A DNA stretch of 64,000 nt from Escherichia phage vB_EcoM-pEB20: the sequence record OP114733. One strand, written 5' to 3'. Below are positions 345-62,845 of this stretch, piece after piece (the stretch's first letter is position 1; each line of letters opens with the position of its first letter). The notes beneath the pieces are model-generated. The model ran no database searches, was not told the origin of the DNA, and was given only the letters and a program-made list of their open reading frames with translations. The translations under genes were made by a program, and so were the position numbers.

Positions 345-1079
345 ATGGAGCTAATCTTTTTAAGTGGCATCAAACGTAGTGGTAAAGACACTACTGCTGA
401 TTACATCAATTCAAACTTTAAATCTGTAAAATATCAATTAGCATATCCAATTAAAGACGCTTTAGCAATTGCCTGGGGTCGTAGGCATGCTGAAAATCCT
501 GATGTATTCACAGAGTTGAAATACGAATACTTTGAAGGCATTGGATACGACCGTGAAACACCATTAAATCTCAATAAGTTGGATGTTATTGAATTATTGG
601 AAGAAGCGCTAATTTATTTGCAAAGTCAATATTTGCCGATTAATAATGTTAAAGTATTATCATCGTTAGAAGGTGGATATTCGTATCTAGATATTAAACC
701 ATATGAAGCCCTGCGTGAAGCTATAAATAATATCAACGACACATGGTCAATCCGCCGTCTTATGCAAGCCCTCGGTACGGATGTTGTCGTTAATTTATTT
801 GACCGTATGTATTGGGTTAAACTTTTTGCATTAAACTATATGGATTATATTGGAAGTGATTTCGATTACTATGTTGTAACCGATACACGCCAAGTCCATG
901 AAATGGAAACCGCTAGAGCGATGGGTGCTACAGTTATTCATGTGGTTCGCTCTGGTACGGAATCCACCGATAAACATATTACAGAAGCTGGGTTGCCTAT
1001 TGAAGAAGGCGATTTAGTTATTACAAACGACGGCTCTTTAGAAGAGCTTTATTCTAAAATTGAAACAATCTTAAGGTAA
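345..1079 (+). CDS. 1: deoxynucleoside monophosphate kinase (gp1)
   Basis: 244 aa; N-terminal P-loop LSGIKRSGKDTTAD; near-identical in motif content to T4 gp1 as recalled. Confidence 0.9.
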   Translation: MELIFLSGIKRSGKDTTADYINSNFKSVKYQLAYPIKDALAIAWGRRHAENPDVFTELKYEYFEGIGYDRETPLNLNKLDVIELLEEALIYLQSQYLPINNVKVLSSLEGGYSYLDIKPYEALREAINNINDTWSIRRLMQALGTDVVVNLFDRMYWVKLFALNYMDYIGSDFDYYVVTDTRQVHEMETARAMGATVIHVVRSGTESTDKHITEAGLPIEEGDLVITNDGSLEELYSKIETILR

Positions 1080-6962: not shown

Positions 6963-6970
6963 AATAATAC

Positions 6971-6992
6971 GGAGGACTCCGGTCCTCCTTTT
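6971..6992 (+). terminator. rho-independent terminator
   Basis: Hairpin GGAGGAC-tccg-GTCCTCC followed by TTTTGG. Confidence 0.7.
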
Positions 6993-7011
6993 GGATAATA
7001 AAGGAGTTAAC

Positions 7012-11949: not shown

Positions 11950-12182
11950 GTATAGCAATTTACATTAAATCAGAATCATGTGATAGTTATCTGTACACAT
12001 ACGATAAAGATGTGTCAGAAGAAAAAATCAAAGACGACCTTAATATGGACCTTGATATGTTCTGTCCTATTGCAGATTACAAACTTGCGGTCTCTAATAG
12101 TGAAAGTCCATCTAAAGAAACGCGCATTGAAGAATTTATGTCCGAATTAATGGCCAAATCATGGGACCGAGATGATGAGTAA
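11946..12182 (+). CDS. small acidic hypothetical protein
   Basis: 78 aa; ATGA overlap with upstream gene. Confidence 0.45.
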   Translation: MSIAIYIKSESCDSYLYTYDKDVSEEKIKDDLNMDLDMFCPIADYKLAVSNSESPSKETRIEEFMSELMAKSWDRDDE

Positions 12183-18861: not shown

Positions 18862-19070
18862 ATATACATTATCCACATCCATATGATCCAAAGAATAAGG
18901 CAGTAATTATTCGTCAATGGGAACGCATTTGTCGTACTAAATGTCCAATTAATAGTCCACATGATGTAGATAAAGACTACATCGGAACATTCGTTGAATA
19001 TACCTTTATTGATAAGAAAGGCCGTAAACAACATGTAGAAGAATATTGCTTAAAGGTGACATGGCTATGA
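18858..19070 (+). CDS. hypothetical protein
   Basis: 70 aa; ATGA overlap. Confidence 0.45.
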   Translation: MNIHYPHPYDPKNKAVIIRQWERICRTKCPINSPHDVDKDYIGTFVEYTFIDKKGRKQHVEEYCLKVTWL

Positions 19071-30979: not shown

Positions 30980-31453
30980 ATGTTATTATCAGGCGCAAAA
31001 TATAAAGAAGAAAAACAAAAATTTTATGATGCACAGAACGGTAAGTGTCCTATTTGCCACCGTGAATTAGACCCTGATGTTCAAGGTAACCATCTTGACC
31101 ACGACCACGAATTAAACGGGCCAAAAGCAGGTAGAGTTCGTGGGTTACTCTGTTCTCTGTGCAACGCAGCAGAAGGTCAAATGAAGCATAAGTTCAACCG
31201 TTCCGGTCTTAAAGGTCGTGATGTCAACTACCTAGAATGGCTTGAAGCTCTTCTTGCTTATTTGAAACAAGATTATTCTGATAATAATATCCATCCTAAT
31301 TTTGTTCCAGACAAAACTAAAGAGTTCTCAAGACTAGGTAAAGAGGAAATGATGGCCGAGATGCTTCAAAGAGGATTTGAATATAATGAATCTGATACTA
31401 AAACACAATTAATAGCTTCATTCAAAAAGCAGCTTAGAAAGAGTTTAAAATGA
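30980..31453 (+). CDS. 49: recombination endonuclease VII (Holliday junction resolvase)
   Basis: 157 aa MLLSGAKYKEEKQKFYDAQNGKCPIC...HLDHDHE; near-identical to T4 gp49. Confidence 0.95.
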   Translation: MLLSGAKYKEEKQKFYDAQNGKCPICHRELDPDVQGNHLDHDHELNGPKAGRVRGLLCSLCNAAEGQMKHKFNRSGLKGRDVNYLEWLEALLAYLKQDYSDNNIHPNFVPDKTKEFSRLGKEEMMAEMLQRGFEYNESDTKTQLIASFKKQLRKSLK

Positions 31454-33267
31454 AAATTGAAAAAGAAATTGAAGGATTAATTCATAAAACTAATAAAGAT
31501 CTTTTGAACGAGAACGCTAATAAAGATTCTCGTGTTTTTCCAACTCAACGGGACCTTATGGCTGGTATTGTGTCTAAGCACATTGCCAAAAATATGGTCC
31601 CGTCTTTTATTATGAATGCGCATGAAAGCGGAATCATTCACATGCATGATATTGATTATTCTCCTGCTCTTCCGTTTACCAATTGCTGTTTAGTCGATTT
31701 AAAGGGGATGCTTGAGAATGGATTTAAATTAGGCAATGCTCAAATTGAAACGCCTAAATCTATTGGTGTTGCTACTGCAATTATGGCACAAATTACTGCA
31801 CAAGTTGCTTCACACCAGTATGGCGGAACTACATTTGCGAATGTCGATAAAGTTCTTTCTCCTTATGTTAAACGCACATACGCTAAACATGTTGAAGATG
31901 CAGAAAAATGGCAAATCGCTGATGCGTTGAATTATGCTCAATCCAAAACAGAAAAAGATGTCTATGACGCGTTCCAAGCTTATGAATATGAAGTAAATAC
32001 TCTCTTTAGTTCAAACGGACAAACGCCTTTTGTAACAATTACATTTGGTATGGGAACTGACTGGACTGAACGAATGATTCAGAAGGCAATTCTTAAAAAC
32101 CGCATTAAAGGTCTTGGTCGTGATGGAATAACTCCTATTTTTCCTAAACTTGTTATGTTTGTTGAAGAAGGTGTTAATCTTTATAAAGATGATCCAAACT
32201 ATGATATTAAACAACTTGCGTTAGAATGTGCAAGCAAAAGAATGTATCCTGACATTATTTCGGTTAAGAATAATAAAGCTATTACCGGTTCTTCAGTTCC
32301 AGTTTCTCCAATGGGTTGCCGTAGTTTCTTGAGCGTATGGAAAGATTCGACTGGTAATGAAATTCTTGATGGACGTAATAATCTTGGTGTTGTAACACTG
32401 AATCTTCCTCGTATCGCATTAGATTCTTATATTGGAACACAGTTCAATGAACAGAAATTTATCGAATTGTTTAATGAACGAATGGATCTGTGTTTTGAAG
32501 CTTTGATGTGTAGAATTAGTTCCTTAAAAGGAGTTAAAGCGACTGTTGCTCCTATTCTTTACCAAGAAGGTGCATTCGGGGTTCGTCTTAAACCTGATGA
32601 CGATATAATTGAGTTATTTAAAAACGGTAGAAGTTCAGTGTCTTTGGGATACATTGGTATTCACGAATTGAATATTCTTGTCGGTCGTGATATTGGACAA
32701 GAAATTTTAACTAAAATGAATGCTCATCTTAAACAGTGGACTGAAAGAACTGGTTTTGCTTTTAGTTTATATTCTACTCCTGCTGAAAACCTTTGTTATC
32801 GCTTCTGTAAACTCGATACAGAAAAATATGGAAGTGTAAAGGATGTTACCGATAAAGGCTGGTACACTAATAGTTTCCATGTTTCAGTAGAAGAAAATAT
32901 TACTCCGTTTGAAAAGATTTCTCGTGAAGCGCCATATCATTTCATTGCGACAGGTGGTCACATTTCTTATGTTGAACTTCCAGATATGAAAAACAATTTA
33001 AAGGGACTTGAGGCTGTCTGGGATTATGCTGCACAACATTTAGATTATTTTGGTGTTAATATGCCAGTGGATAAATGTTTTACATGCGGAAGTACTCATG
33101 AAATGACTCCCACTGAAAACGGATTTGTTTGTTCAGTTTGTGGAGAAACTGATCCTAAAAAGATGAACACAATAAGAAGAACATGTGGTTATTTGGGAAA
33201 TCCGAACGAACGCGGATTTAATCTCGGTAAAAATAAAGAAATCATGCATAGGGTTAAACACCAATGA
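31450..33267 (+). CDS. nrdD: anaerobic ribonucleoside-triphosphate reductase NrdD
   Basis: 605 aa; C-terminal glycyl radical motif RRTCGYLG and Zn ribbon CFTCGS...CSVCG; uninterrupted (no intron). Confidence 0.95.
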   Translation: MKIEKEIEGLIHKTNKDLLNENANKDSRVFPTQRDLMAGIVSKHIAKNMVPSFIMNAHESGIIHMHDIDYSPALPFTNCCLVDLKGMLENGFKLGNAQIETPKSIGVATAIMAQITAQVASHQYGGTTFANVDKVLSPYVKRTYAKHVEDAEKWQIADALNYAQSKTEKDVYDAFQAYEYEVNTLFSSNGQTPFVTITFGMGTDWTERMIQKAILKNRIKGLGRDGITPIFPKLVMFVEEGVNLYKDDPNYDIKQLALECASKRMYPDIISVKNNKAITGSSVPVSPMGCRSFLSVWKDSTGNEILDGRNNLGVVTLNLPRIALDSYIGTQFNEQKFIELFNERMDLCFEALMCRISSLKGVKATVAPILYQEGAFGVRLKPDDDIIELFKNGRSSVSLGYIGIHELNILVGRDIGQEILTKMNAHLKQWTERTGFAFSLYSTPAENLCYRFCKLDTEKYGSVKDVTDKGWYTNSFHVSVEENITPFEKISREAPYHFIATGGHISYVELPDMKNNLKGLEAVWDYAAQHLDYFGVNMPVDKCFTCGSTHEMTPTENGFVCSVCGETDPKKMNTIRRTCGYLGNPNERGFNLGKNKEIMHRVKHQ

Positions 33268-45174: not shown

Positions 45175-47886
45175 ATGAAAGAATTTTACTTAACGGTTGA
45201 ACAGATTGGTGATTCAATTTTTGAACGTTACATCGATTCTAATGGCCGTGAACGTACTCGTGAAGTAGAATATAAACCATCACTGTTTGCTCATTGTCCA
45301 GAAAGTCAGGCTACAAAATATTTCGATATCTACGGTAAGCCGTGTACTCGTAAGTTGTTCGCTAATATGCGTGATGCCTCCCAATGGATTAAACGCATGG
45401 AAGATATCGGACTTGAAGCACTTGGCATGGACGATTTCAAATTGGCGTATTTGTCTGACACTTATAACTATGAAATCAAATACGACCATACAAAAATTCG
45501 TGTGGCTAACTTCGACATCGAAGTAACATCTCCGGACGGGTTCCCTGAGCCGTCACAAGCAAAACATCCGATTGATGCTATCACCCATTATGACTCAATT
45601 GACGACAGGTTCTACGTATTTGATCTATTGAATTCTCCATATGGTAATGTAGAAGAATGGTCTATTGAAATCGCTGCTAAGCTTCAAGAACAAGGTGGTG
45701 ATGAAGTTCCATCTGAAATTATCGATAAAATCATTTATATGCCGTTCGATAGCGAAAAAGAATTGTTGATGGAATATCTCAACTTCTGGCAACAGAAAAC
45801 TCCTGTCATTTTGACTGGATGGAACGTTGAGTCATTTGATATTCCATATGTGTATAACCGAATCAAGAATATTTTTGGCGAATCTACTGCGAAACGTTTA
45901 TCACCACATCGTAAAACTCGTGTTAAAGTTATCGAAAACATGTATGGTTCTCGTGAAATCATTACATTGTTCGGTATCTCTGTTCTTGATTACATTGACC
46001 TTTACAAAAAATTCTCTTTTACCAATCAACCGTCGTATTCTCTGGATTACATTTCAGAATTTGAATTGAACGTTGGTAAACTGAAATATGACGGCCCTAT
46101 TTCTAAGCTTCGTGAAAGCAATCACCAACGATATATTTCTTATAACATTATCGACGTGTATCGTGTATTGCAAATTGATGCTAAGCGTCAGTTCATCAAC
46201 TTGAGCTTGGACATGGGTTATTATGCTAAGATACAGATTCAATCTGTGTTCAGCCCAATTAAAACATGGGATGCCATTATTTTTAATAGCCTTAAAGAGC
46301 AGAACAAGGTGATTCCACAAGGTCGTTCTCACCCGGTTCAACCTTATCCTGGCGCTTTTGTTAAGGAACCTATTCCAAATCGATACAAATATGTAATGAG
46401 TTTCGACCTTACATCTCTGTATCCAAGTATTATTCGCCAAGTGAATATTAGCCCGGAAACAATAGCAGGAACGTTTAAAGTAGCTCCACTGCATGATTAT
46501 ATTAACGCTGTTGCTGAACGTCCTTCAGATGTGTACAGTTGTTCTCCTAACGGCATGATGTATTATAAAGACCGTGATGGTGTAGTTCCAACTGAAATCA
46601 CTAAGGTCTTTAATCAACGTAAAGAACATAAAGGTTACATGCTTGCAGCTCAACGTAATGGTGAAATAATTAAAGAGGCATTGCATAATCCTAATCTTTC
46701 TGTTGACGAACCATTAGATGTTGATTATCGTTTCGACTTCAGCGATGAGATTAAAGAAAAGATTAAAAAGTTGTCTGCTAAATCTCTTAATGAAATGTTG
46801 TTTAGAGCTCAACGTACTGAAGTTGCAGGTATGACTGCACAAATTAACCGTAAATTGCTCATCAACTCACTTTATGGTGCACTTGGAAACGTTTGGTTCC
46901 GTTATTATGATTTGCGTAATGCTACTGCAATCACAACATTCGGGCAAATGGCTTTACAGTGGATTGAACGTAAAGTTAATGAATATCTGAATGAGGTTTG
47001 TGGTACAGAAGGCGAAGCTTTCGTTCTATATGGTGATACAGACTCCATTTACGTATCTGCAGATAAAATTATTGATAAGGTTGGTGAATCTAAATTCCGT
47101 GATACCAACCATTGGGTAGACTTCTTAGATAAGTTCGCTCGTGAACGTATGGAACCAGCTATTGATAGAGGTTTCCGTGAAATGTGTGAATACATGAACA
47201 ATAAACAACACTTAATGTTCATGGACCGAGAAGCTATCGCTGGGCCTCCGCTCGGTTCTAAAGGTATTGGTGGATTCTGGACTGGTAAGAAACGTTATGC
47301 ATTAAACGTGTGGGATATGGAAGGTACTCGTTACGCTGAGCCTAAACTCAAAATCATGGGTCTCGAAACACAGAAATCTTCGACTCCTAAAGCAGTACAG
47401 AAAGCTCTTAAGGAATGTATTCGTCGTATGCTTCAAGAAGGTGAAGAATCATTACAAGAATATTTTAAAGAGTTTGAAAAAGAATTCCGTCAATTGAATT
47501 ATATTAGCATCGCGTCGGTATCTTCTGCGAATAACATTGCTAAATATGACGTCGGTGGATTCCCTGGCCCCAAATGTCCGTTCCATATTCGTGGAATTCT
47601 GACATATAACCGGGCTATCAAAGGTAATATTGATGCTCCACAAGTTGTAGAAGGTGAAAAAGTATATGTTCTGCCTTTACGTGAAGGAAACCCATTCGGT
47701 GATAAATGTATCGCATGGCCTTCTGGTACTGAAATCACAGATTTAATTAAAGACGACGTACTTCATTGGATGGACTACACTGTTCTCCTTGAGAAGACAT
47801 TTATTAAACCACTTGAAGGATTCACATCAGCAGCGAAACTCGATTACGAGAAGAAAGCATCTCTGTTCGATATGTTCGATTTTTGA
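45175..47886 (+). CDS. 43: DNA polymerase gp43 (B family)
   Basis: 903 aa; exo motifs FDIEV, YNIIDV; pol motifs DLTSLYPSII, KILINSLYGALG, YGDTDS; matches RB69 polymerase as recalled; no intein/intron. Confidence 0.97.
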   Translation: MKEFYLTVEQIGDSIFERYIDSNGRERTREVEYKPSLFAHCPESQATKYFDIYGKPCTRKLFANMRDASQWIKRMEDIGLEALGMDDFKLAYLSDTYNYEIKYDHTKIRVANFDIEVTSPDGFPEPSQAKHPIDAITHYDSIDDRFYVFDLLNSPYGNVEEWSIEIAAKLQEQGGDEVPSEIIDKIIYMPFDSEKELLMEYLNFWQQKTPVILTGWNVESFDIPYVYNRIKNIFGESTAKRLSPHRKTRVKVIENMYGSREIITLFGISVLDYIDLYKKFSFTNQPSYSLDYISEFELNVGKLKYDGPISKLRESNHQRYISYNIIDVYRVLQIDAKRQFINLSLDMGYYAKIQIQSVFSPIKTWDAIIFNSLKEQNKVIPQGRSHPVQPYPGAFVKEPIPNRYKYVMSFDLTSLYPSIIRQVNISPETIAGTFKVAPLHDYINAVAERPSDVYSCSPNGMMYYKDRDGVVPTEITKVFNQRKEHKGYMLAAQRNGEIIKEALHNPNLSVDEPLDVDYRFDFSDEIKEKIKKLSAKSLNEMLFRAQRTEVAGMTAQINRKLLINSLYGALGNVWFRYYDLRNATAITTFGQMALQWIERKVNEYLNEVCGTEGEAFVLYGDTDSIYVSADKIIDKVGESKFRDTNHWVDFLDKFARERMEPAIDRGFREMCEYMNNKQHLMFMDREAIAGPPLGSKGIGGFWTGKKRYALNVWDMEGTRYAEPKLKIMGLETQKSSTPKAVQKALKECIRRMLQEGEESLQEYFKEFEKEFRQLNYISIASVSSANNIAKYDVGGFPGPKCPFHIRGILTYNRAIKGNIDAPQVVEGEKVYVLPLREGNPFGDKCIAWPSGTEITDLIKDDVLHWMDYTVLLEKTFIKPLEGFTSAAKLDYEKKASLFDMFDF

Positions 47887-47926: not shown

Positions 47927-48562
47927 ATGAAAACTACTCCTATTACTATCGCTATTGACGCAATTATAAAACAAGCTTCTTCTTTGGCCGCTATGGCCAA
48001 AGTAATTAGTCAAAACCCTGCTCGTTATAATGCTATTCTAGAAACTCTTCGACGCCCTGGACTTAGTAATTATGAAAGCCGGGTAATTATTACAGGTGTT
48101 GGTAAGAATGCTAATATCGCAACTAAAGCTTCCGAGACTTTTGCTTCACTCGGTATCCCGAGTATGTACTTGAACACTGGGCATTATTCTCACGGTGATG
48201 CAGGATTCATTGCGCCTAATGATGTGTTGATTCATATTAGTCGTTCTGGTAAAACTGAAGAAATGATAGGCGTGGCTAAGCATCTTAAAATGATTCGTCC
48301 GAATGTCAAACAGATTCTGTTGCATTGTAACCCAGACATTCCACAAGAAAATGAAGCCCTTTTTGATTACTCTTTCTGTACAGGCATCGCGGTAGAGGTT
48401 GATGAGAATTCTCTGGCTCCGACTATGTCCACTACATTGTTGTTAGCGCTTATCGATACGTTTGCTATCAACCTTTCGTCTGAGCGTGGATTTACCTCTA
48501 ATGACTTCCTTAAGTTCCATCCAGGCGGTGCACTAGGTGCCATGTTACGAGGCGAACAATGA
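47927..48562 (+). CDS. SIS-domain sugar-phosphate isomerase (arabinose-5-phosphate isomerase-like, KdsD/GutQ family)
   Basis: 211 aa; GVGKNANIATKASETFASLG, HGD, LAPTMSTT and HPGGALG motifs align with the KdsD SIS domain; no CBS domains. Confidence 0.8.
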   Translation: MKTTPITIAIDAIIKQASSLAAMAKVISQNPARYNAILETLRRPGLSNYESRVIITGVGKNANIATKASETFASLGIPSMYLNTGHYSHGDAGFIAPNDVLIHISRSGKTEEMIGVAKHLKMIRPNVKQILLHCNPDIPQENEALFDYSFCTGIAVEVDENSLAPTMSTTLLLALIDTFAINLSSERGFTSNDFLKFHPGGALGAMLRGEQ

Positions 48563-48743
48563 AAGCAATAACAATAGGACTTTTACTATTGATGCTTGTC
48601 ATGACTATCTACTGGAGCTTAACGGCTCCAGTAATGATTCCAACACTTGTAATTGGATGGATTATGATTGGACTACAAGCAAAGTATGAATGCTTTAACT
48701 AGAATAGTGTACAATACTCCTACTTACCAATGAGGACTTCAAC

Positions 48744-50429
48744 ATGAAAAAAGCTGTTATTCTTGGTGCTGGACTGGCAACTCGTTTGTATCCAATAACG
48801 CACCATATTCCTAAGGTGCTTGTTAACTATAAACAAGACACTATTCTAAGCAATTTGTATACAATTTATTCTGACCTTGGCGCAGATGAAATTATTGTAG
48901 TAGTTCATTCAAAATTTGCTGAAACTGTTCGAGCTTATTGTGAGCAAGAAGGGTTCAATGTGACTATTCGTACAGTTGATGAAGCGTATGGTTCTGCTTA
49001 TGCTCTTGCTAAATTACACAAAGATTTAGACGGCCATAATGTAATTGTTAACTGGTGTGATATTATTCCTGATTTTGGTTCATGGTCTTGGAATGTTAAC
49101 GCAATCTATGTTAAGGGTGACGAATGTCGATATAATTTCGACGGTGAAAATATCACTAACGTAGGTTCAACAGGTGGTAATGTTGTAGGAATTTATCAGT
49201 TCAAAGACTGGGAATTCTATATGGGTTCTACTGATGAGGAAATTCATGAATACTGCAAAGGACGTGATTTCGTAGAATTCCTTTACGGCAGCGCATTCAA
49301 TAAATCAGAGCTTATGAATCTAATTGATTTAGGTGATATGCCTAAACTTGAAAAAGCTCATGAAGTTCGTGAACTTAATCGTAGTTTTAATGCAGTTGAA
49401 ATTGGTGAAGAAACTGTAACTAAATTCGCATTAACCGAACAGGGTCGAGCTCTTCAGAAAGATGAGATTTCATGGTATCTTAAAGTGAAATCAGATTCAG
49501 TTCCTCAGTTAGTTTCGGTAAATGAAAATAATTTTGAAATGGAACGTATTAAAGGTAAGCCGGCATTTGAATATATTAAATCCAAATCAAGTCTTGCTCG
49601 TCCACAAATTGTTGATGCAATTTTAGATGCACTGAAATTCAGCACAGACACTTATTTTGTAAGTCCTGAAACTGTTCGTCGTGATTTCACTAAAGAGTTC
49701 TATACGAAAGTTATTGATCGTTGTGAAAGCATTCAACCATTGATTGATTCATTTGGTAAAATCACACATGTGAACTACACTAAGATTGGACGTCTGAAGC
49801 CAATGCTGAAACAAGCTTTAGAACACCTTATTCGTTATCATAACCGTTCTCAGGGACAGTACTCTGTTATTCATGGTGACCCGAACTTCAGTAATACTAT
49901 GATTACTGATAACGGCGAAGTCAAGTTTATAGACCCTCGTGGATATTTTGGCGAAACCAAGATTTATGGGCCAAAATTGTATGATGAAGCTAAAGTGCTT
50001 TATGCTGTTTCAGGATATGATGAATTCAATGCTAATCCGACCTGGGGACAGTTTACTATTGATGAAACAACTTGTAATGTGACTATTAACATCAATCCAT
50101 TAGTTTACAAATATGGAAAGATGAGTTCGTTTAACGAGTATCATCATTTGGCTGTAGCAATTATCTGGATTGCATTAGGTGGTTATTTCAAGAATAATCC
50201 ACTTAAAGCGGTAGCCGCATATTATAAAGGTATGGAACTTCTGACTAAGCAATTACGTAACATGGGCCGTGTACTTCAGGACGGCTCTATTAGTTATGAC
50301 GTAGCAGAACCTGTAACGGCTACTCTGATTACAAAAAATCCTGGTAAATGGGTACTAACTGATAAAGAAACCGGTGTTTCCTATCGTCCAATCGGTGGCG
50401 ATATCACTCATCAATGGGAACGAATTTAA
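48744..50429 (+). CDS. bifunctional sugar-1-phosphate nucleotidyltransferase / kinase-like protein
   Basis: 561 aa; N-terminal GAGLATRLYP (RmlA/GlmU-type NTase); C-terminal HGDPNFSN...D.E resembles APH/choline-kinase fold. Confidence 0.7.
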   Translation: MKKAVILGAGLATRLYPITHHIPKVLVNYKQDTILSNLYTIYSDLGADEIIVVVHSKFAETVRAYCEQEGFNVTIRTVDEAYGSAYALAKLHKDLDGHNVIVNWCDIIPDFGSWSWNVNAIYVKGDECRYNFDGENITNVGSTGGNVVGIYQFKDWEFYMGSTDEEIHEYCKGRDFVEFLYGSAFNKSELMNLIDLGDMPKLEKAHEVRELNRSFNAVEIGEETVTKFALTEQGRALQKDEISWYLKVKSDSVPQLVSVNENNFEMERIKGKPAFEYIKSKSSLARPQIVDAILDALKFSTDTYFVSPETVRRDFTKEFYTKVIDRCESIQPLIDSFGKITHVNYTKIGRLKPMLKQALEHLIRYHNRSQGQYSVIHGDPNFSNTMITDNGEVKFIDPRGYFGETKIYGPKLYDEAKVLYAVSGYDEFNANPTWGQFTIDETTCNVTININPLVYKYGKMSSFNEYHHLAVAIIWIALGGYFKNNPLKAVAAYYKGMELLTKQLRNMGRVLQDGSISYDVAEPVTATLITKNPGKWVLTDKETGVSYRPIGGDITHQWERI

Positions 50430-50794
50430 TGCAACTATGCTTCGATGTCGATGATTGTATAACCGAATGGAATAACAATCGTGATTACGCTAATTTTAAA
50501 CCGGACCTAGAAATGGTGGCAGCCATTAATGCCTTGTATGACGCAGGGCATACCATCACGCTTTACACTGCTCGTGGTATGAAGTCTGTAGGTCCTGGAC
50601 GTATTGCTGTAGATATCCTACCAGGTCTGTTACAGAACTTAGCTAACATTGGTTTGAAGTATCATAATTTGCTAACACATAAACCAGTATATGATTGGAT
50701 TATCGACGACAAAGCTATGCGTCCTGACGAATTCAAAGCTCTTATGAATAAAGGCGAATTCGAAACATTTAAATCATATAAACCAAATCTATAA
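50429..50794 (+). CDS. HAD-superfamily phosphatase-like protein
   Basis: About 121 aa; motif I FDVDDCIT; start 50429 (TAATG overlap) or 50414. Confidence 0.6.
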   Translation: MQLCFDVDDCITEWNNNRDYANFKPDLEMVAAINALYDAGHTITLYTARGMKSVGPGRIAVDILPGLLQNLANIGLKYHNLLTHKPVYDWIIDDKAMRPDEFKALMNKGEFETFKSYKPNL

Positions 50795-50840: not shown

Positions 50841-52010
50841 ATGCAAAAAATGAATACTTTTAAAATTGGAACGAATTTCGATTTAGCTCTTCTTGATAAA
50901 ATCGTAGAGCTCAATAAAACTTATCCTAATAGCTTGATAAATGAAGTATACGGCTCTACAAGAGAAATGGCTTTTGTAGCAGCCAGACCTGATTTTAGGC
51001 TTCCTGACGTTGACAAAAAGATGTTAGAAGACTACGTTAAACGTTGTAACGAATTAGGTATTTGCTTTAACTATACACTCAACACGATAAATCCTGGTTC
51101 AAAAAGAGAACTAGTTGAGTGGAAGAAGAAAGCTATTCAGGATTATGTTCAGTATCTTTGGTCAATAGGCGTATGGCGTATTACTATCGCTAACCCTGTT
51201 GTTATGGAAATTGTTCGTGAAGTCAATAAAGACATTGAGATTGAAGTTTCAACAATTCTACATGTCGATGCTGTAACTCAAATCAAATACTTGCATGACC
51301 AGTATAATATCAAAAAGGTCTGCTGTGGAATTCATAAGAACCGTTCAGTTTCTTTCCTGAAGCGTGCAGCAGAGTTTTGCAATAAGAACAATATAATATT
51401 TGAAGTTCTTGTAAATGAGTTCTGTTCTAATGCTGGTAAAGGGTATACAACACATTGTAGCTATCGTGACTCTTGCTATATTTTCCATAGTACTGATGTT
51501 ACAGCTGATGATGCTAAATCCTTAAACGGATATCCTATGCAGCACTGTATTAAAGCTCGTGATACAGACCCATTTAACTGGTTGAGAACTCGTTTTGTTC
51601 GTCCTCAAGATTTGAAACTTTATAATGATATTGGTATCACTCAATTTAAAGTTTCAGGACGTACAGGTAGCACAGACTACATTTTGAAAGTTCTTGAAGC
51701 ATACGCTTCTGAAAAGTTTGAAGGTAATTTGTTAGAACTGTGGAAGCCTTTAGAGACTATTTTCACTCTTGAAAACGAAACTGAGTTTTCACATACGGTA
51801 AATATTGAAACCTCTTTGTTAGACGGCTTTTTAGAAAAAAGGTGGTTCAGACATCCAGATTTCGATTGTGCTAATGAAATCTGCGGGACGACGTGTACAT
51901 ATTGTGAAAGATATTATAAACGTCAGTTATCTAAAAATGGGTTATCAGAAAACTCTATATCTATTATTGATATAACTAACTCTGATGACGCTTTGAGGTA
52001 CCCGGAATGA
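50841..52010 (+). CDS. peptidase U32-family-like protein (putative Fe-S dependent enzyme)
   Basis: 389 aa; EVLVNEFCSNAGKG and QFKVSGRTGSTDYI resemble U32 signature regions; C-terminal Cys cluster C-x4-C-x3-C-x2-C; assignment tentative. Confidence 0.5.
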   Translation: MQKMNTFKIGTNFDLALLDKIVELNKTYPNSLINEVYGSTREMAFVAARPDFRLPDVDKKMLEDYVKRCNELGICFNYTLNTINPGSKRELVEWKKKAIQDYVQYLWSIGVWRITIANPVVMEIVREVNKDIEIEVSTILHVDAVTQIKYLHDQYNIKKVCCGIHKNRSVSFLKRAAEFCNKNNIIFEVLVNEFCSNAGKGYTTHCSYRDSCYIFHSTDVTADDAKSLNGYPMQHCIKARDTDPFNWLRTRFVRPQDLKLYNDIGITQFKVSGRTGSTDYILKVLEAYASEKFEGNLLELWKPLETIFTLENETEFSHTVNIETSLLDGFLEKRWFRHPDFDCANEICGTTCTYCERYYKRQLSKNGLSENSISIIDITNSDDALRYPE

Positions 52011-52246
52011 TTTCTAGAAAAACTTTTAACCACCAACTTAATGAAGAGATTTTGACTATAAAACTGAACACTAACGAACAAATTCTTAAAAAGGCCCTGA
52101 TGGGCCTGTTTGAAACTAAAGCGGCTAAAGTGATTAAAGAACCTGTTCAATTGGAATACTACGCTGATGCATTTCTTCATAGTGTTCTTGGAAGTATCGA
52201 TGCTGAAGCTTTACGTTATATCAACATTGTCAAGAAATTCAAATAA
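52007..52246 (+). CDS. hypothetical protein
   Basis: 79 aa ORF; ATGA overlap. Confidence 0.45.
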   Translation: MISRKTFNHQLNEEILTIKLNTNEQILKKALMGLFETKAAKVIKEPVQLEYYADAFLHSVLGSIDAEALRYINIVKKFK

Positions 52247-52288: not shown

Positions 52289-53005
52289 ATGGGAAAACAT
52301 AACACAATGAAATATATCAAAGCCGCAGATTTTCAAACCGCATTTAAAGCAGTCAATCGTGAAATTTTAGAAAACCCGGAATTCGTAACTGATTCTCGTA
52401 TTGGACGTTGTAATGAAATTGGGTCTATGACAGTAGTTGTTGACACTCCATCATCATTCAAAATGACCGACCCACGTATTAACCGCATCTCTTATGAATA
52501 TGCCGAAGACTTCTGGAAGTTTATGATTTCTGGTGGTACCAACGCAGAAGAAGCGTTTAAGGCATATCCTAATGTCGCTAAATTTATTTCTAAACCAAAA
52601 TCAGATGTTTTGCCGGCGAACTTCAACACTTTCTATGGTCCTCGCATTGCGGCCCAATTACCAGCTCTTCTAAAAGAACTTAAAGAGAAGCCTAACTCTC
52701 GAAGAGTTGTGTTCCAAATTCTAGAAAGTTCTGATCAGGCTTTGCTTGATTCAGACGAAACGCTTGAATATCCATGTACTGACTCAGTGACTTATTATAT
52801 TCGTGATGGTAAGCTTTATACCCACTGTCATATGCGTTCTCAGAACTGTGCTGTTGTTATGCAGTTGGATTTTTATCTCCAAGGAAAATTACTTCATTAT
52901 ATCGCTAACGAATGCGGTGTAGAAGTTGGTGATTATACTCATACCATGGTAAGTGCCCATGTGTTTGAACGTGATTTTGATTATGTTAAAGGATTCCTTG
53001 ACTAA
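52289..53005 (+). CDS. 42: thymidylate-synthase-fold pyrimidine hydroxymethylase (gene 42-like dCMP hydroxymethylase)
   Basis: 238 aa; PNSRRVVFQI and catalytic-Cys region YPCTDSVTYYIRDGKLYTHCHMRSQN align to TS/dCMP-HMase motifs; more divergent from T4 gp42 than neighbours. Confidence 0.7.
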   Translation: MGKHNTMKYIKAADFQTAFKAVNREILENPEFVTDSRIGRCNEIGSMTVVVDTPSSFKMTDPRINRISYEYAEDFWKFMISGGTNAEEAFKAYPNVAKFISKPKSDVLPANFNTFYGPRIAAQLPALLKELKEKPNSRRVVFQILESSDQALLDSDETLEYPCTDSVTYYIRDGKLYTHCHMRSQNCAVVMQLDFYLQGKLLHYIANECGVEVGDYTHTMVSAHVFERDFDYVKGFLD

Positions 53006-53904
53006 TGGCTATTTTCCGCGTACCTATCTTGAGTATGCGGTCTTATGAAACTGGACAGTATGCTATCCTTAAGGATGGCAACTTCCAACTTCATTTGCAC
53101 CGTGCTAATCCGGGTGATGTGATTACATATCCACGTAATGCATCTGATATTAAAGAATGCGAACGTCTTTTCCCAGAATTTAAGTTTGTTCCGTTATGGT
53201 ATAAAGATAACGCATATAATACTCGTAAATATTTCTGGTCTGAAAATGAATTTGTAGTTGATTCGTTGATTGCTTATTATGATTGTGATTTTCTCATCAC
53301 GGATATCACTGGATATGATGGTGCTTTTGACGTAGAATTCAATTTCAATATCACTGCAGACCCTAATAAACCACGTTTTTATATTGACGAATTCTTAAAA
53401 ACTGATATGTTGTCGGTTAATCGTTCACTTCAAACTACTGTGTTGAATGAACGTCAAAAAGAAGTGCTGGTTAACGCAGGTGCAGATGGTAATAAGATTA
53501 TCGTAACGCAGAAAGTTATACGTCCTTCCATCATGCAGCGTCTTGTAGGTGATTTGGCTCCTATTCATCTAGATGGTATTTTTCATCCATTTCGAATTAG
53601 TGACCCGTGCTATCGTTTTGAACAAGTGGTTGAATGTGCAATTCAATTAGGCCAACCGCTTTATATAACCGATCCAAATAATAGCTTCGACAGAAATAAG
53701 TATCCTGAAGAAGCACTGATTCGAATTTTTAAACCAACTAAAACTGAGTACTATCAAATTCTTAAAGGACGTCCGAAGATTCAATATTTCGAAAATCCTG
53801 AAGAAGTATTCCATCCAGGTCTTGGTGAGTTCATCTACTTTAACGCTTTAATTTCTTCGCCGTATAATATACCTAAATATGAAGATGTCGTAATCGAGGA
53901 ATAA
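53005..53904 (+). CDS. hypothetical protein at the position of T4 beta-glucosyltransferase
   Basis: 299 aa; no recognised motif; synteny only. Confidence 0.55.
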   Translation: MAIFRVPILSMRSYETGQYAILKDGNFQLHLHRANPGDVITYPRNASDIKECERLFPEFKFVPLWYKDNAYNTRKYFWSENEFVVDSLIAYYDCDFLITDITGYDGAFDVEFNFNITADPNKPRFYIDEFLKTDMLSVNRSLQTTVLNERQKEVLVNAGADGNKIIVTQKVIRPSIMQRLVGDLAPIHLDGIFHPFRISDPCYRFEQVVECAIQLGQPLYITDPNNSFDRNKYPEEALIRIFKPTKTEYYQILKGRPKIQYFENPEEVFHPGLGEFIYFNALISSPYNIPKYEDVVIEE

Positions 53905-53905
53905 A

Positions 53906-54454
53906 ATGGCTAAAATTATTTTAGTAGATGGCCCGGATAATGCTGGTAAAACAACTTTCATTAATGACATAATGGAAATTAGTGAAAGATATGTAAAGAT
54001 TGATTTCCCTAAACGAACAGTTGATGGGCGTTTCGATGTTAAGTCTCGAAATGAAGTTGGCTGTTTCGAAACGATGTTGAATTATTTAGACCCTACTAAG
54101 ATTTATCTGTTAGACCGTGGATATATTAGTAACTGGGTTTATGGACGTATTCGACAAGATGCGGACTCGATTCTTGACGTTTATGAACAGGACTATGTTC
54201 GTCTTTGCCAAAACCATGATGTGTTCACAATTATTTTAACACGTAACGAAATGACTGAAAGTTTTGAAGACGACCTTATTACTTTGTCTTCACTCAGTTT
54301 CAATACAGTCATTTCACATTTTGAAGAGTTTGCAATTCATAACAAAATCCAAACGTATCAATTACTTAATCATGATGGTGCTAACAAAGTTATAGGATTT
54401 AATGCAAGCGAACGTAATTATTTGATTACAGAAATTATCAAATGGGCTCGTTAA
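53906..54454 (+). CDS. P-loop kinase-like protein
   Basis: 182 aa; Walker A VDGPDNAGKTT at N-terminus as in NMP/small-molecule kinases. Confidence 0.6.
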   Translation: MAKIILVDGPDNAGKTTFINDIMEISERYVKIDFPKRTVDGRFDVKSRNEVGCFETMLNYLDPTKIYLLDRGYISNWVYGRIRQDADSILDVYEQDYVRLCQNHDVFTIILTRNEMTESFEDDLITLSSLSFNTVISHFEEFAIHNKIQTYQLLNHDGANKVIGFNASERNYLITEIIKWAR

Positions 54455-54552: not shown

Positions 54553-55725
54553 ATGTCTGATTTAAAATCTCGTCTGATTAAAGCTTCTACTTCTAAAATG
54601 ACTGCGGACTTGACTAAGTCTAAGCTGTTTAATAATCGCGATGAAGTCCCTACTCGTATTCCGATGTTGAATATTGCATTAGGCGGTGCACTGAATGCCG
54701 GGTTGCAATCAGGCTTAACTATTTTTGCTGCTCCTTCTAAACACTTTAAAACGTTGTTTGGACTGACCATGGTTGCAGCGTATATGAAGAAATATAAAGA
54801 TGCAATCTGTTTGTTTTATGACTCAGAATTCGGTGCTTCAGAATCTTATTTTCGTTCAATGGGTGTTGATTTAGACCGTGTAGTTCATACTCCTATTCAA
54901 TCTGTCGAACAACTTAAAGTTGATATGACTAATCAGCTAGATGCAATCGAACGTGGCGAGAAAGTTATTATCTTTATTGACTCAATCGGTAACACTGCAT
55001 CTAAGAAAGAAACCGAAGATGCTTTGAACGAGAAAGTTGTAGGCGATATGTCTCGTGCTAAGGCACTTAAATCTTTATTTCGTATCGTAACGCCTTATCT
55101 GACTATTAAAGATATTCCGTGCGTTGCAATTAACCACACTGCTATGGAAATTGGTGGATTATATCCTAAAGAGATTATGGGTGGTGGTACAGGTATTCTT
55201 TATTCAGCCAACACCGTATTCTTTATCTCTAAACGTCAGGTTAAAGAAGGTACAGAATTGACCGGTTATGACTTCACGTTGAAAGCAGAAAAATCTCGTA
55301 CAGTTAAAGAGAAATCTACTTTCCCAATCACGGTTAATTTTGATGGCGGTATTGACCCATTCAGTGGCTTGTTAGAAATGGCAACTGAAATTGGTTTTGT
55401 AGTTAAGCCTAAAGCCGGTTGGTATGCTCGTGAATTCCTTGACGAAGAAACAGGTGAAATGATTCGTGAAGAGAAATCGTGGCGTGCTAAAGCTACTGAT
55501 TGTGTAGAATTCTGGGGACCTTTGTTTAAACATAAGCCTTTCCGTGACGCAATTGAAATGAAATATAAGCTAGGCGCTATCTCGTCTATTAAAGAAGTTG
55601 ATGACGCTGTTAACGACCTTATTAATTGCAAAGCAACAACTAAAGTTCCGGTTAAAGCTTCTGATGCTCCATCTGCAGCAGATATTGAAAACGACCTGGA
55701 CGAAATGGAAAATTTTGATGAATAA
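54553..55725 (+). CDS. uvsX: RecA-like recombinase UvsX
   Basis: 390 aa MSDLKSRLIKASTSKMTADL...; Walker A GLTIFAAPSKHFKT; near-identical to T4 UvsX as recalled. Confidence 0.95.
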   Translation: MSDLKSRLIKASTSKMTADLTKSKLFNNRDEVPTRIPMLNIALGGALNAGLQSGLTIFAAPSKHFKTLFGLTMVAAYMKKYKDAICLFYDSEFGASESYFRSMGVDLDRVVHTPIQSVEQLKVDMTNQLDAIERGEKVIIFIDSIGNTASKKETEDALNEKVVGDMSRAKALKSLFRIVTPYLTIKDIPCVAINHTAMEIGGLYPKEIMGGGTGILYSANTVFFISKRQVKEGTELTGYDFTLKAEKSRTVKEKSTFPITVNFDGGIDPFSGLLEMATEIGFVVKPKAGWYAREFLDEETGEMIREEKSWRAKATDCVEFWGPLFKHKPFRDAIEMKYKLGAISSIKEVDDAVNDLINCKATTKVPVKASDAPSAADIENDLDEMENFDE

Positions 55726-56068: not shown

Positions 56069-57511
56069 GTGGTAGAAATTATTTTGTCTCATCTAGTATA
56101 TGACCAGGCTTATTTTTCTAAGGTCTGGCCTTATATGGATTCTGAGTATTTTGAGCGTGGACCGGCAAAAAATGTCTTTAAAATTATAAAGAGCCACGTT
56201 AACGAATATAATGCAATGCCATCTATCAATGCGTTAAAGGTGGCTTTAGATAACAGTTCTTTAACTGAAGCCGAATATAAAGGAACTTCAGACCTAATTG
56301 AAAAATTGGCTGATACTCCTGAAGACCACGAATGGTTGGTTAAAGAAACCGAGAAATATGTCCAGCAAAAAGCGATGTATAATGCTACGTCCAAAATCAT
56401 TGAGATTCAGTCTAATGCTGAACTACCTCCAGAACAACGTAACAAGAAAATGCCTGACGTAGGAGCTATTCCTGATATTATGCGTCAAGCACTTTCAATT
56501 TCGTTCGATAGTTATGTTGGACATGACTGGATGGAAGACTACGAAGCACGCTGGCTTTCTTATCTAAATAAAGCACGTAAGGTCCCGTTCAAATTAAACA
56601 TTTTGAATAAAATCACTAAAGGTGGTGCTGAAACCGGTACACTGAATGTTTTAATGGCCGGTGTTAACGTTGGTAAATCTTTAGGCCTTTGTTCACTTGC
56701 TGCAGATTATCTTCAAACAGGTCATAACGTTCTTTATATTTCTATGGAAATGGCTGAAGAAGTTTGTGCTAAGCGTATCGATGCAAACATGCTTGACGTA
56801 TCACTTGATGATATTGATGATGGTAACGTATCTTATGCTGAATATAAAGCCAAGATGGAAAAATGGCGTTCAAAATCCACATTAGGACGTTTAGTAGTTA
56901 AACAGTATCCTACTGGTGGAGCTAATGCTAATACATTTCGTGCATTGCTTAATGAGTTAAAACTTAAGAAGAACTTTGTACCATCTGTAATCATGGTTGA
57001 TTACTTAGGTATTTGTGGGTCTTGTCGTATCAGAGTTTACACTGAAAATAGCTACACATTAGTTAAAGCTATCGCAGAAGAACTTCGTGCATTAGCAGTA
57101 GAATCTGAAACAGTTCTATGGACTGCAGCTCAAGTAGGACGTGCAGCATGGGATGCTTCAGACATGAACATGAGTGATATCGCAGAATCAGCAGGTTTAC
57201 CAGCAACGGCAGATTTCATGTTGGCCGTAATTGAAACCGAAGAACTTGCACAAGCTGAACAACAACTTATCAAACAAATCAAATCACGATATGGCGATAA
57301 GAATAAGTGGAATAAATTCCTGATGGGTGTACGTAAAGGCAACCAGAAATGGGTTGAGATTGAGCAAGAAGGCATGAACACACCTAACACAGTAAATGAA
57401 AACGCAGGTGCTCAGATGCGTCAGGCAGAGGTGAATCGTACGGAACGCGTAGGTAAAGCCAAAGCAACACGTGCTGACCTAGATAGCTTAGCCAATGAGT
57501 TAAAATTTTAA
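56069..57511 (+). CDS. 41: replicative DNA helicase gp41
   Basis: 480 aa, GTG start; Walker A GVNVGKS; near-identical to T4 gp41 as recalled. Confidence 0.95.
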   Translation: MVEIILSHLVYDQAYFSKVWPYMDSEYFERGPAKNVFKIIKSHVNEYNAMPSINALKVALDNSSLTEAEYKGTSDLIEKLADTPEDHEWLVKETEKYVQQKAMYNATSKIIEIQSNAELPPEQRNKKMPDVGAIPDIMRQALSISFDSYVGHDWMEDYEARWLSYLNKARKVPFKLNILNKITKGGAETGTLNVLMAGVNVGKSLGLCSLAADYLQTGHNVLYISMEMAEEVCAKRIDANMLDVSLDDIDDGNVSYAEYKAKMEKWRSKSTLGRLVVKQYPTGGANANTFRALLNELKLKKNFVPSVIMVDYLGICGSCRIRVYTENSYTLVKAIAEELRALAVESETVLWTAAQVGRAAWDASDMNMSDIAESAGLPATADFMLAVIETEELAQAEQQLIKQIKSRYGDKNKWNKFLMGVRKGNQKWVEIEQEGMNTPNTVNENAGAQMRQAEVNRTERVGKAKATRADLDSLANELKF

Positions 57512-58603: not shown

Positions 58604-58972
58604 ATGAAAAAATTAATCGCTTTAGCAATGGTATTTGGATTAACCGGATGTGGTGCCCATGGCTTTATCCCTAATAACGTTGGCCAACTGATTTACAATC
58701 CGAATGTTAAACAGTACGACCACCCTAAAGTTGAAGTGGAAGACCCGGTTACTGTAGGTAATCGAATGATTCAAGCTGATGCCCATGCTCAACGTTATCG
58801 TGACTCTGATACTGTAGCATTGTCAAAAGAACAACGCGTTAAAGAACATTGCTTACAGGCTACTGAAATCGCATTCATTCGCTATGTTGAAACAACTGGT
58901 AAAGAGCCTACCCAGAAACAAATCGCGAATAACTACGTACAGTGTATTGAACGTTTAAACAAATTTAATTAA
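58604..58972 (+). CDS. putative lipoprotein
   Basis: 122 aa; signal peptide with lipobox LTGC. Confidence 0.6.
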   Translation: MKKLIALAMVFGLTGCGAHGFIPNNVGQLIYNPNVKQYDHPKVEVEDPVTVGNRMIQADAHAQRYRDSDTVALSKEQRVKEHCLQATEIAFIRYVETTGKEPTQKQIANNYVQCIERLNKFN

Positions 58973-59033
58973 TTGGTTTACACCAAAGTTAAAATAAGAT
59001 ACTATAAACATAACAAATCAAGAGGAAATTAAC

Positions 59034-59282
59034 ATGGAATTATTCGTAGCTAGTTCAGTAGCAGTTTTAATCGCAGGTATTGGTTCAATCATCATTTACA
59101 TGTTGCCTTGGGTAATCGCACTTATTCGTGGTACAAAAAGCACAACAGCAATCTTCTTTGTATCTTTACTCTTTAACTGGACGATGATTGGTTGGATTGG
59201 AACTTTAATTTGGTCTATCGTTGCCGAAAAGAAATCTGCTCAGCAGCCTCAACAAGTAATTATTATTCGCGAAAAAGAATAA
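59034..59282 (+). CDS. small membrane protein
   Basis: 82 aa, two TM helices, SD AGAGGAAA. Confidence 0.5.
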   Translation: MELFVASSVAVLIAGIGSIIIYMLPWVIALIRGTKSTTAIFFVSLLFNWTMIGWIGTLIWSIVAEKKSAQQPQQVIIIREKE

Positions 59283-62323: not shown

Positions 62324-62845
62324 ATGGCGCACTTTAACGAATGTTCACAACTTATTTCTGGTGTTGATAAAGCAGAAGAAGCTTATTTTAATGCTCTGAT
62401 TCACGAAGATAAAGACCCACTGCAGGTAATGCTTGATATGCAGAAATCTTTACAGGTTCGTCTGGCAAATGACAAGCCTGAACATAACAAACATCCTGAT
62501 GAATTGGCTACTGCTGGTGATGTTGTTGATTGGCTGCGTAATCAGAAAGATTATATTGATGACGAATTCCGTGAACTACTGACTTCACTTGGTGGTATGT
62601 CCAATGGTGAAAAAGCCGCTAGCTCTGTGTGGAAGCCATGGAAAGCACAACATGCCGAATATCGTAATCGTCGTATCGATGAACTGTCTCCTGAAGACCA
62701 GCTTGAAATTAAATTTGAGATGATTGATATCCTCCACTTTGTTCTGAATATGTTCCAAGGTCTGGGTCTTTCTGCTGAAGAAATCTTTAAACTTTACTAC
62801 TTGAAAAACCAACACAACTTTGAACGCCAGAATAATGGTTACTGA
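62324..62845 (+). CDS. 56: dCTP pyrophosphatase gp56 (MazG-like)
   Basis: 173 aa MAHFNECSQLISGVDKAEE...; matches T4 gp56 as recalled. Confidence 0.9.
   Translation: MAHFNECSQLISGVDKAEEAYFNALIHEDKDPLQVMLDMQKSLQVRLANDKPEHNKHPDELATAGDVVDWLRNQKDYIDDEFRELLTSLGGMSNGEKAASSVWKPWKAQHAEYRNRRIDELSPEDQLEIKFEMIDILHFVLNMFQGLGLSAEEIFKLYYLKNQHNFERQNNGY

Follow-up and report, generated by a model that had tools for sequence, protein, structure and literature searches.

A thymidylate synthase-fold protein of an RB69-like Mosigvirus is predicted to be a flavin- and O2-dependent dCMP 5-hydroxylase carried within an arabinose module

The analysis concerns a 64,000-nucleotide stretch of the genome of Escherichia phage vB_EcoM-pEB20 (sequence record OP114733), referred to here in its whole length as the window. 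The element under study is the open reading frame (ORF) at 52289-53005 (+), which starts with ATG, encodes 238 amino acids (aa) and has a GAGG Shine-Dalgarno sequence located 5 nt upstream. This ORF very probably encodes a thymidylate synthase (TS)-fold, flavin/O2-dependent deoxycytidine monophosphate (dCMP) 5-hydroxylase, known as AfhB or 5-hydroxy-dCMP (5hodCMP) synthase, which would belong to a distinct branch of the TS family and would not be a fast-evolving ortholog of T4 gp42. The initial annotation, made from the letters of the sequence, had described a TS-fold hydroxymethylase more divergent from T4 gp42 than its neighbors, and had proposed either an exchange together with an adjacent sugar module or an altered substrate specificity.

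A sequence search of the PDB returned three AfhB entries of phage HY126 (9IQC, 9IR2, and 9IQU) at E values of 1e-157 to 1e-161 and 98% identity. These were followed by thymidylate synthases (E ~1e-12, among them a value of 2.8e-12) and then by the CMP 5-hydroxymethylase MilA (4e-11), and T4 gp42 was not found among the best 60 matches. The entry 9IQC bears the title “Monooxygenase dependent on riboflavin with dCMP and FAD”, while 9IQU is described as the phage HY126 dCMP hydroxylase-AfhB with its substrate dCMP; both were released on 2025-07-16. Additionally, an AlphaFold (AF2) model of the ORF product (pLDDT 88) was searched with Foldseek, which ranked 9IQC first (TM 0.94 at 98% identity), then MilA (TM 0.85) and thymidylate synthases, with T4 gp42 again not found among the best 50 matches. 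The protein is also 99% identical to RB69ORF048c (RB69 gp48), which is annotated in the RB69 record only as “similar to dCMP hydroxymethylase, td”. The identities to HY126 AfhB and RB69 gp48 extend over the full length, and the gene neighborhood is common to these phages and the window. Relative to 9IQC, five substitutions were observed in 238 residues (T17, E31, N85, E87, and V107); they are conservative or surface-type, and the two proteins otherwise show no difference. The residues E160, C163, N186, and D194 are shared with HY126 AfhB, RB69 gp48, and gp80 of Acinetobacter phage DLP3, and every feature of the hydroxylase family that can be read from a sequence was found in this ORF.

The divergence from T4 was quantified by fetching the T4 genome and comparing all ORFs of the window with it by tblastn. 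The ORF at 52289-53005 showed 24.8% identity to T4 gp42 over 218 aa (E 9e-11). Among the surrounding genes that the initial annotation had used for comparison, identity to T4 was 79% for regA, 78.9% for gp45, 67.7% for uvsX, and 85.6-87% for gp41, and further core genes gave 61.6% (gp43), 77.8% (gp44), 82.1% (gp46), 75.2% (gp47), 74% (gp61), and 71% (gp56). Seventy-five ORFs had a T4 match spanning at least 70% of the ORF; their median identity was 70% (quartiles 52-83%), and the ORF studied here ranked lowest; it was again lowest in the subset of 34 ORFs of at least 150 aa, for which the median was 77.6%. The pairwise alignment that had been proposed as a check thus gave no high identity to gp42, and the discrepancy noticed in the initial annotation is confirmed as real and large and is no artefact of an incorrect T4 reference sequence.

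A large distance from gp42 might be expected from a true ortholog that diverged rapidly and still makes 5-hydroxymethyl-dCMP, which was the prevailing reading before 2025. This explanation is consistent with the genomic slot between genes 43 and uvsX, which matches that of T4 gene 42, and with the fold, the catalytic Cys, and the Asp at the position of ThyA N177, all common to both proteins. It also accords with the first description of RB69 DNA as carrying arabinosyl-hydroxymethylcytosine (PMC6024577) and with the many GenBank records that name a dCMP hydroxymethylase. However, identity falls to 24.8% where the neighbors retain 62-87%, and the protein is as distant from gp42 as from true thymidylate synthases. 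When T4 gp42 was used as the query in a reverse search (phmmer), AfhB was recovered at E 3.8e-6, and true thymidylate synthases at 2.6e-10 to 1e-6, including matches to B. subtilis ThyA (E 2.6e-10) and the E. coli TS (E 2e-6). Since the distance between gp42 and the window protein is no smaller than that of either one from true thymidylate synthases, they are better described as separate branches of the TS superfamily than as diverged orthologs, and a simple fast divergence of a gp42 ortholog was rejected on this ground. Moreover, the crystal structures of the 98% identical protein are titled as those of a flavin-dependent dCMP hydroxylase, and the ether linkage, the incorporation of 18O2, and a product unlike the one formed by T4 gp42 have been reported (PMC13326640), with which PMC13390438 agrees. 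We consider this alternative very improbable, and the hydroxymethylase label of the initial annotation is accordingly replaced.

The distribution of homologs agrees with a separate hydroxylase branch. Identity to the window protein in the phage collection was bimodal, with 342 records at 60% or more, no record below these down to ~30%, and further groups at ~30% (Rhizobium phages) and ~25% (gp42 type). Pairwise protein alignment, from which all cross-phage identities were taken, showed that the hydroxylases of the other six genera of the clade are 69-80% identical to the window protein, compared with 68-91% for uvsX and 61-74% for gp41. By these values, AfhB behaves as a stable core gene within its clade, and the break is seen only against gp42-type phages.

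Signature residues were examined in an alignment of the window protein, RB69 gp48, seven clade members, T4 gp42, and E. coli ThyA (a sequence identical to PDB 1AOB). Corresponding positions are given here in the order ThyA, window protein, and T4 gp42. The catalytic cysteine is present in all three (C146, C163, and C148), as is the Arg-Ser pair (R166/S167, R183/S184, and R168/S169). An acidic residue replaces L143 of ThyA in both phage proteins (E160 and D145), and an Asp replaces N177 (D194 and D179). The two phage proteins differ at three further positions, where gp42 keeps the residue of ThyA: D169, N186, and D171; G173, V190, and G175; and Y209, F226, and Y218. According to PMC13326640, the diagnostic mark of the hydroxylases is an Asn where ThyA has Asp169, whereas N177D and L143E also occur in hydroxymethylases. 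Furthermore, E160, C163, R183, S184, N186, and D194 were invariant in 55 homologs with identities down to 52%. The end of the window protein aligns with ThyA residue 221, so that the C-terminal folate lid (ThyA 222-264) is missing.

Compared with T4 gp42 (PDB 1B49, 1B5D, and 1B5E), the window protein therefore has the same fold, the equivalents of Cys148 and Asp179 (C163 and D194), the latter being the base-specificity residue, and the acidic residue at the L143 position. The dCMP substrate, the genomic slot, and the role as the first committed step of cytosine replacement are also alike. Glu60, Trp82, Asp171, Gly175, and Tyr218, retained in gp42, are absent from the window protein; all are folate/TS residues. 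The protein did not cluster with gp42 orthologs. The losses at D171 and G175 are securely aligned, while E60 and W82 face F75 and A97 in a part where the alignment is weak. The two enzyme types also differ in chemistry, as gp42 uses methylene-tetrahydrofolate and water to add a hydroxymethyl group, and the window-type enzyme uses flavin and O2 to add a hydroxyl (PMC13326640). The earlier suggestion of an altered substrate specificity consequently holds in part. It does not apply to the nucleotide, which would still be dCMP, as judged from Asp194 and the dCMP-bound crystal structure; it applies in spirit to the co-substrate (flavin and O2, with no methylene-tetrahydrofolate) and to the product (5-hydroxy, not 5-hydroxymethyl). 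This switch, with an unchanged substrate and a different cofactor and product, has already been published.

Many database records assign the protein to yet another function, that of a thymidylate synthase converting deoxyuridine monophosphate to deoxythymidine monophosphate (dTMP). The TS fold itself, as claimed in the initial annotation, was borne out by the Foldseek matches and by Pfam Thymidylat_synt (PF00303, E 2.3e-15), which matched residues 122-235 only. All the motifs noticed earlier were located, namely the SRR loop in NSRRVV (R138 and R139), the catalytic Cys in LEYPCTDSVTY (C163), and the HxRS region as HMRS (R183 and S184). The protein also shares with ThyA the Cys nucleophile, the phosphate-binding arginines, and the RS motif, and thymidylate synthase models are its only Pfam and NCBIfam matches, in line with the many phage records annotated in this way. 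Nevertheless, the NCBIfam scores of 17-68 bits are far under the curated cut-offs of 108-427 bits (e.g. 50 bits), and Asp in place of Asn at the N177 position favors cytosine (Hardy and Nalivaika 1992, as cited in PMC13326640). The protein differs from ThyA by N177D, D169N, G173V, and L143E, lacks the C-terminal lid, and would have another substrate, cofactor, and product; the solved structure of its close homolog holds dCMP. A thymidylate synthase function is hence even less probable than that of a gp42 ortholog, to the point of being negligible.

Two other enzyme groups are informative for the placement of the predicted hydroxylase. MilA (PDB 5B6D and 5JNH) is its best non-self fold match (TMq 0.84-0.85, 23% identity; E 4e-11) and shares specificity for a cytosine nucleotide, but its chain exceeds that of the window protein by ~80 residues, it prefers the ribonucleotide, and by name and literature it is a folate-dependent hydroxymethylase and no hydroxylase. 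The enzymes of the Rhizobium phage RL38J1 type, whose Rhizobium phage homologs rank next in similarity within the phage collection, are reported 5hodCMP makers that also carry D169N (PMC13326640). They differ in their identity of only ~30-32% to the window protein and in being tied to hexose (galactose/glucose) glycosylation, not to arabinose.

Some observations weigh against the hydroxylase assignment. The N-terminal half of the protein aligns poorly with TS and gp42, which makes the E58 and W80 equivalences uncertain. Position 85 is Asn in the window protein, while Asp (motif GGTDA) occupies it in at least 90% of the clade members, RB69 and HY126 among them. Sequences identical to the window protein occur in the isolated phages phiE142, AV114, and NHEP29, and the Asn85 variant is therefore presumably functional. 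Finally, the predicted function rests on the 98-99% identity to characterised proteins and on the conserved residues.

The biochemistry of these characterised proteins has been described in several recent reports. Lee et al. (NAR 2026) showed that gp48 converts dCMP to 5hodCMP with O2 and a loosely bound flavin; the product was labelled by 18O2, and flavin mononucleotide co-purified with RB69 gp48 (PMC13326640). RB69 gp48 together with the phage deoxynucleoside monophosphate (dNMP) kinase placed 5-hydroxydeoxycytidine in E. coli DNA, and T4 gp42, assayed alongside, gave a different product. In the same work, the DNA of RB69 and Acinetobacter phage DLP3 was found to contain mono- and poly-arabinosylated 5-hydroxycytosine (5hoC), with an ether at C5 established by nuclear magnetic resonance and mass spectrometry. 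The crystal structure from HY126 and the reconstitution in vitro are credited there to He et al. (Nat Chem Biol 2026), and the work of Mahler et al. (Cell Host Microbe 2025) is cited as well (PMC13326640). An independent phage-collection (Durham) paper repeats the hydroxylase assignment (PMC13390438). The older report of arabinosyl-hydroxymethylcytosine in RB69 DNA (PMC6024577) is superseded.

From these results and the residues described above, a reaction course can be proposed. The substrate dCMP would be held by the phosphate-binding residues R138, R139, R183, and S184, with Asp194 reading the cytosine, and Cys163 would add to C6 as in the TS family, thereby activating C5. An oxygen species derived from O2 and reduced flavin would then attack C5, and elimination would restore the pyrimidine ring. 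The outcome, 5hodCMP, is taken from the literature on the 98-99% identical proteins, while the individual steps follow family chemistry. As the flavin is loosely bound, its reduced form probably comes from a host reductase. The 5hodCMP would be phosphorylated by the gene 1 homolog of the window and incorporated by gp43 in place of dCMP. The resulting 5hoC in DNA would be arabinosylated by the adjacent glycosyltransferase with uridine diphosphate (UDP)-arabinofuranose supplied through the neighboring isomerase, kinase/pyrophosphorylase, and phosphatase.

In Table 1, we list the predicted hydroxylase gene, the genes associated with it, and the regions of related loci discussed below. A region of 6.6 kb around the ORF was 97-98% identical in DNA to the genomes of RB69 and some 150 further Mosigviruses, and by this measure the window belongs to an RB69-like Mosigvirus. 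The gene order is gene 43, the isomerase, the 47-aa ORF, the 561-aa and 126-aa proteins, the U32 protein, the 79-aa ORF, the TS-fold ORF, the 299-aa and 182-aa proteins, uvsX, 40, and 41.

Table 1. Predicted genes of the hydroxylation and arabinosylation pathway in the window, and corresponding regions at other phage loci (coordinates of the latter refer to the individual locus)
Feature	Coordinates	Strand	Basis
Predicted dCMP 5-hydroxylase (AfhB; RB69 gp48 homolog)	52289..53005	+	PF00303; 98% to 9IQC/9IQU; 99% to RB69ORF048c
Putative D-arabinose-5-phosphate isomerase (SIS; RB69 gp55 homolog), first step to UDP-arabinofuranose	47927..48562	+	Pfam SIS, E 1e-10; annotation of related records
47-aa hydrophobic ORF (RB69ORF054c position)	48559..48702	+	144-nt ‘Transmembrane segment(s)’ ORF at the same position in Serratia phage LC53
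Putative bifunctional sugar kinase/nucleotidyltransferase, 561 aa (AfhE-like; RB69 gp52:53)	48744..50429	+	N-terminal Pfam NTP_transferase; weak C-terminal kinase matches
Putative HAD-like sugar phosphatase, 126 aa (AfhF-like; RB69 gp51)	50414..50794	+	Position; homology to RB69ORF051c; PMC13326640; no Pfam match
Peptidase_U32 protein (RB69 gp50 homolog)	50841..52010	+	PF01136, E 7e-11
79-aa ORF (RB69ORF049c homolog)	52007..52246	+	No Pfam or NCBIfam match
Putative DNA 5-hydroxycytosine arabinosyltransferase 1, 299 aa (RB69 gp46:47)	53005..53904	+	Function from PMC13326640 Table 1; no Pfam match, no T4 match
Putative thymidylate-kinase-like nucleotide kinase, 182 aa (RB69 gp45)	53906..54454	+	Weak NCBIfam dTMP-kinase match, E 0.008; RefSeq ‘thymidylate kinase’
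Putative dNMP kinase (T4 gene 1 homolog)	345..1079	+	62.7% to T4 gp1 over 244 aa
Putative dCTPase (T4 gene 56 homolog), supplying dCMP and removing dCTP	62324..62845	+	71.1% to T4 gp56 over 173 aa
U32 and chorismate mutase region, related loci	L006 4992-6502; L007 5603-7240; L008 5829-7231; L009 5874-7264		
~330-aa ORF and U32, metagenomic contigs	L014 7028-9101; L015 7016-9101; L016 7022-9086; L017 2735-4820		

Apart from the hydroxylase ORF itself, no ORF between 47927 and 54454 had a match in the T4 genome by tblastn. Seven loci from seven genera were compared (RB69, Acinetobacter phage Konradin, Serratia LC53, Yersinia phiR1-RT, Klebsiella F48, Shewanella Thanatos-2, and E. coli Dhakavirus JS10), and all contained, with variation, a block of nucleotidyltransferase/kinase, phosphatase, hydroxylase, glycosyltransferase, and kinase genes. 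In the records of the phage collection, homologs of the 299-aa glycosyltransferase and AfhB-type enzymes were found in similar numbers (348 and 342, respectively). The AfhB gene is thus inherited jointly with the arabinose genes. The proposed exchange together with the sugar module is well supported in the form of co-inheritance and block replacement, given that the 43-uvsX interval, apart from the weak gp42 match, is without a T4 counterpart and the block recurs in seven loci.

Within the block, the glycosyltransferase ORF begins so close to the hydroxylase gene that its start overlaps the AfhB stop codon. The AfhE-like function of the 561-aa protein follows from that described for RB69 gp52:53 (PMC13326640), and its orthologs in the six other phages are 44-72% identical. 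Homologs of the 182-aa kinase were present in Konradin, LC53, phiR1-RT, Thanatos-2, and JS10, and F48 has a hypothetical ORF matched in size and position. The dNMP kinase of RB69 that phosphorylates 5hodCMP is gp159 (PMC13326640); the kinase at 345..1079, a T4 gene 1 homolog, is the probable counterpart of that enzyme. The 561-aa and 299-aa proteins are each encoded by a single ORF in the window, whereas both are split in the RB69 record (ORF053c/052c and ORF047c/046c, at 6846-8532 and 11129-12029 of locus L001). Lee et al. attributed these splits to sequencing errors (PMC13326640), a claim with which the unsplit ORFs of the window agree. A scan for promoters and terminators across 47.8-54.65 kb gave counts equal to the shuffled expectation and was uninformative on operon structure.

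The flanks of the block point to a mosaic history. Homologs of T4 imm.1 and imm were located at 58604-59282 (+), downstream of gene 41, while in T4 they lie between genes 42 and 43; this relocation indicates that the 43-uvsX interval was rebuilt and did not merely diverge. Both gp43 (45175-47886) and uvsX (54553-55725) are nearer to JS10 (84% and 91%) than to T4 (62% and 68%), and gp41 (56069-57511) is nearer to T4 (87%) than to JS10 (69%), which places a probable recombination junction between uvsX and 41. In addition, the dNMP kinase (62.7%) and gp43 (61.6%), the two enzymes that have to accept the modified nucleotide, are among the more T4-divergent large core proteins (median 77.6%). The divergence of gp1 and gp43 could reflect co-adaptation to 5-hydroxydeoxycytidine or simply linkage to the module. 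Elsewhere in the window, the NrdD homolog (31450-33267, +) is an uninterrupted ORF of 605 aa, while the annotation of T4 nrdD joins two pieces around the I-TevII gene. Identity of this protein to T4 reaches 98.8% over 425 aa, and the tk.3 homolog (18858-19070, +) matches T4 at 100%. As both values are far above the median of 70%, they suggest a recent exchange with a T4-like phage or an unusually strong constraint.

One member of the module, the U32 protein, led us to consider a further function. We tentatively propose a division of labor in which AfhB would be the aerobic route and the U32 protein would make the same hydroxyl from prephenate under anoxia; such a role would complement the hydroxylase function of AfhB. 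The module may in that case encode two unrelated cytosine C5-hydroxylases, AfhB and a prephenate-dependent, O2-independent U32 protein suited to the anoxic gut, which we regard as possible but doubtful. Anoxia is the normal state of the gut in which the E. coli host lives. The proposal is in keeping with the O2 requirement of AfhB, demonstrated by 18O2 labelling (PMC13326640), and with precedent in the family. RlhA (5-hydroxycytidine, ho5C, in 23S rRNA), TrhP (5-hydroxyuridine, ho5U, in tRNA), and UbiU/V are U32 proteins that need Fe-S clusters and prephenate, and in the O2-independent hydroxylation of ubiquinone, for which UbiU/V are required, prephenate is the oxygen donor (PMC5727448, PMC6599085, and PMC10990095). 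Ten cysteines of the window protein (Cys161, 180, 195, 206, 212, 236, 343, 348, 352, and 355) were invariant in 38 homologs and would be able to hold the predicted Fe-S cluster. Moreover, the U32 gene is the most conserved of the module, with 82-88% identity across genera compared with 44-69% for the glycosyltransferase, and both observations favor the proposal.

The genomic context of U32 in related phages points in the same direction. At the loci of the Serratia, Klebsiella, and Shewanella phages, a small CM_2 chorismate mutase gene (AroQ-type, Pfam E 1.7e-11) lies directly 3' of U32; a single small ORF separates the two genes in Yersinia phiR1-RT. The pair moves as a unit in Thanatos-2, and chorismate mutase matches were found in 56 phage records, including Enterobacter, Proteus, and Erwinia phages. 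Chorismate mutase produces prephenate, and its position beside U32 would fit a prephenate-dependent enzyme. Both genes are missing at the Acinetobacter phage locus examined, and Acinetobacter falls outside the ten commonest genera with a U32 match. The Acinetobacter host is a strict aerobe, so that the missing U32 there is also consistent with a role under anoxia.

Metagenomic homologs of U32, ~50-55% identical, were located in large phage contigs with a DnaE polymerase, amid nucleotide-metabolism genes such as those for dCMP deaminase, thymidylate kinase, UDG-like proteins, and dUTPase; radical SAM genes are also among the neighbors. One of these contigs carries a TAGT-like glycosyltransferase and a UDP-galactopyranose mutase near U32. 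In four contigs, an ORF of ~330 aa stands immediately upstream of U32, overlapping or abutting it, and both of the two ORFs tested were homologous to the 5hoC arabinosyltransferase (hhalign 99.1% and 98.6%). Within 8 kb of these U32 and glycosyltransferase pairs, no gene of the TS family was found. In these uncultured phages the pair would appear to act by itself, which suggests an O2-independent route to the hydroxyl, although a TS homolog could sit elsewhere on the contigs.

Other observations are less favorable to an O2-independent hydroxylase. RB69 gp50 was labelled a ‘sugar or heterocycle reductase’ by Lee et al.; of the RNA hydroxylation pathways that depend on U32 proteins, they state that these ‘do not use homologs of the 5hodCMP synthase’, and they do not link gp50 to them (PMC13326640). 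The locus of E. coli Dhakavirus JS10 lacks both U32 and chorismate mutase, and hence neither is required in that host. The Mosigviruses lack a recognisable chorismate mutase. Their 79-aa ORF occupies the slot of this gene in related phages; it was considered as a diverged chorismate mutase and rejected (BLASTP E 0.15, hhalign probability 0.2%, no Pfam/NCBIfam match). A PDB sequence search with the U32 protein gave no match, the fold search gave only 5D88, a generic U32 barrel, followed by TIM barrels of unrelated proteins, and NCBIfam gave only a weak UbiU match (E 9e-4, 18 bits vs a cut-off of 440). By its sequence, the window U32 protein is placed outside the characterised RlhA/TrhP/UbiU/UbiV subfamilies, in a separate phage-borne subfamily.

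The dCMP 5-hydroxylase function adds no new biology, being already known from the PDB entries of 2025, Cell Host Microbe 2025, Nat Chem Biol 2026, and NAR 2026, and the association of U32 with chorismate mutase may be the sole element that goes beyond published work. The assignment has value for annotation, since many GenBank records name this gene ‘thymidylate synthase’ or ‘dCMP hydroxymethylase’, and the combination of E160, C163, N186, and D194 with the linked module would be a reliable identifier of AfhB-type genes. The divergence from T4 gp42 would mark a biochemical switch in which the TS scaffold gave up folate one-carbon transfer in favor of flavin/O2 hydroxylation, the outcome being DNA with ether-linked arabinosyl-5-hydroxycytosine that is resistant to many restriction systems. 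The link between U32 and chorismate mutase raises the question of how a strictly O2-dependent DNA modification is sustained in anaerobic hosts. If the tentative role of U32 is true, these enzymes would represent a second, previously unrecognised entry into DNA with glycosylated hydroxypyrimidines.

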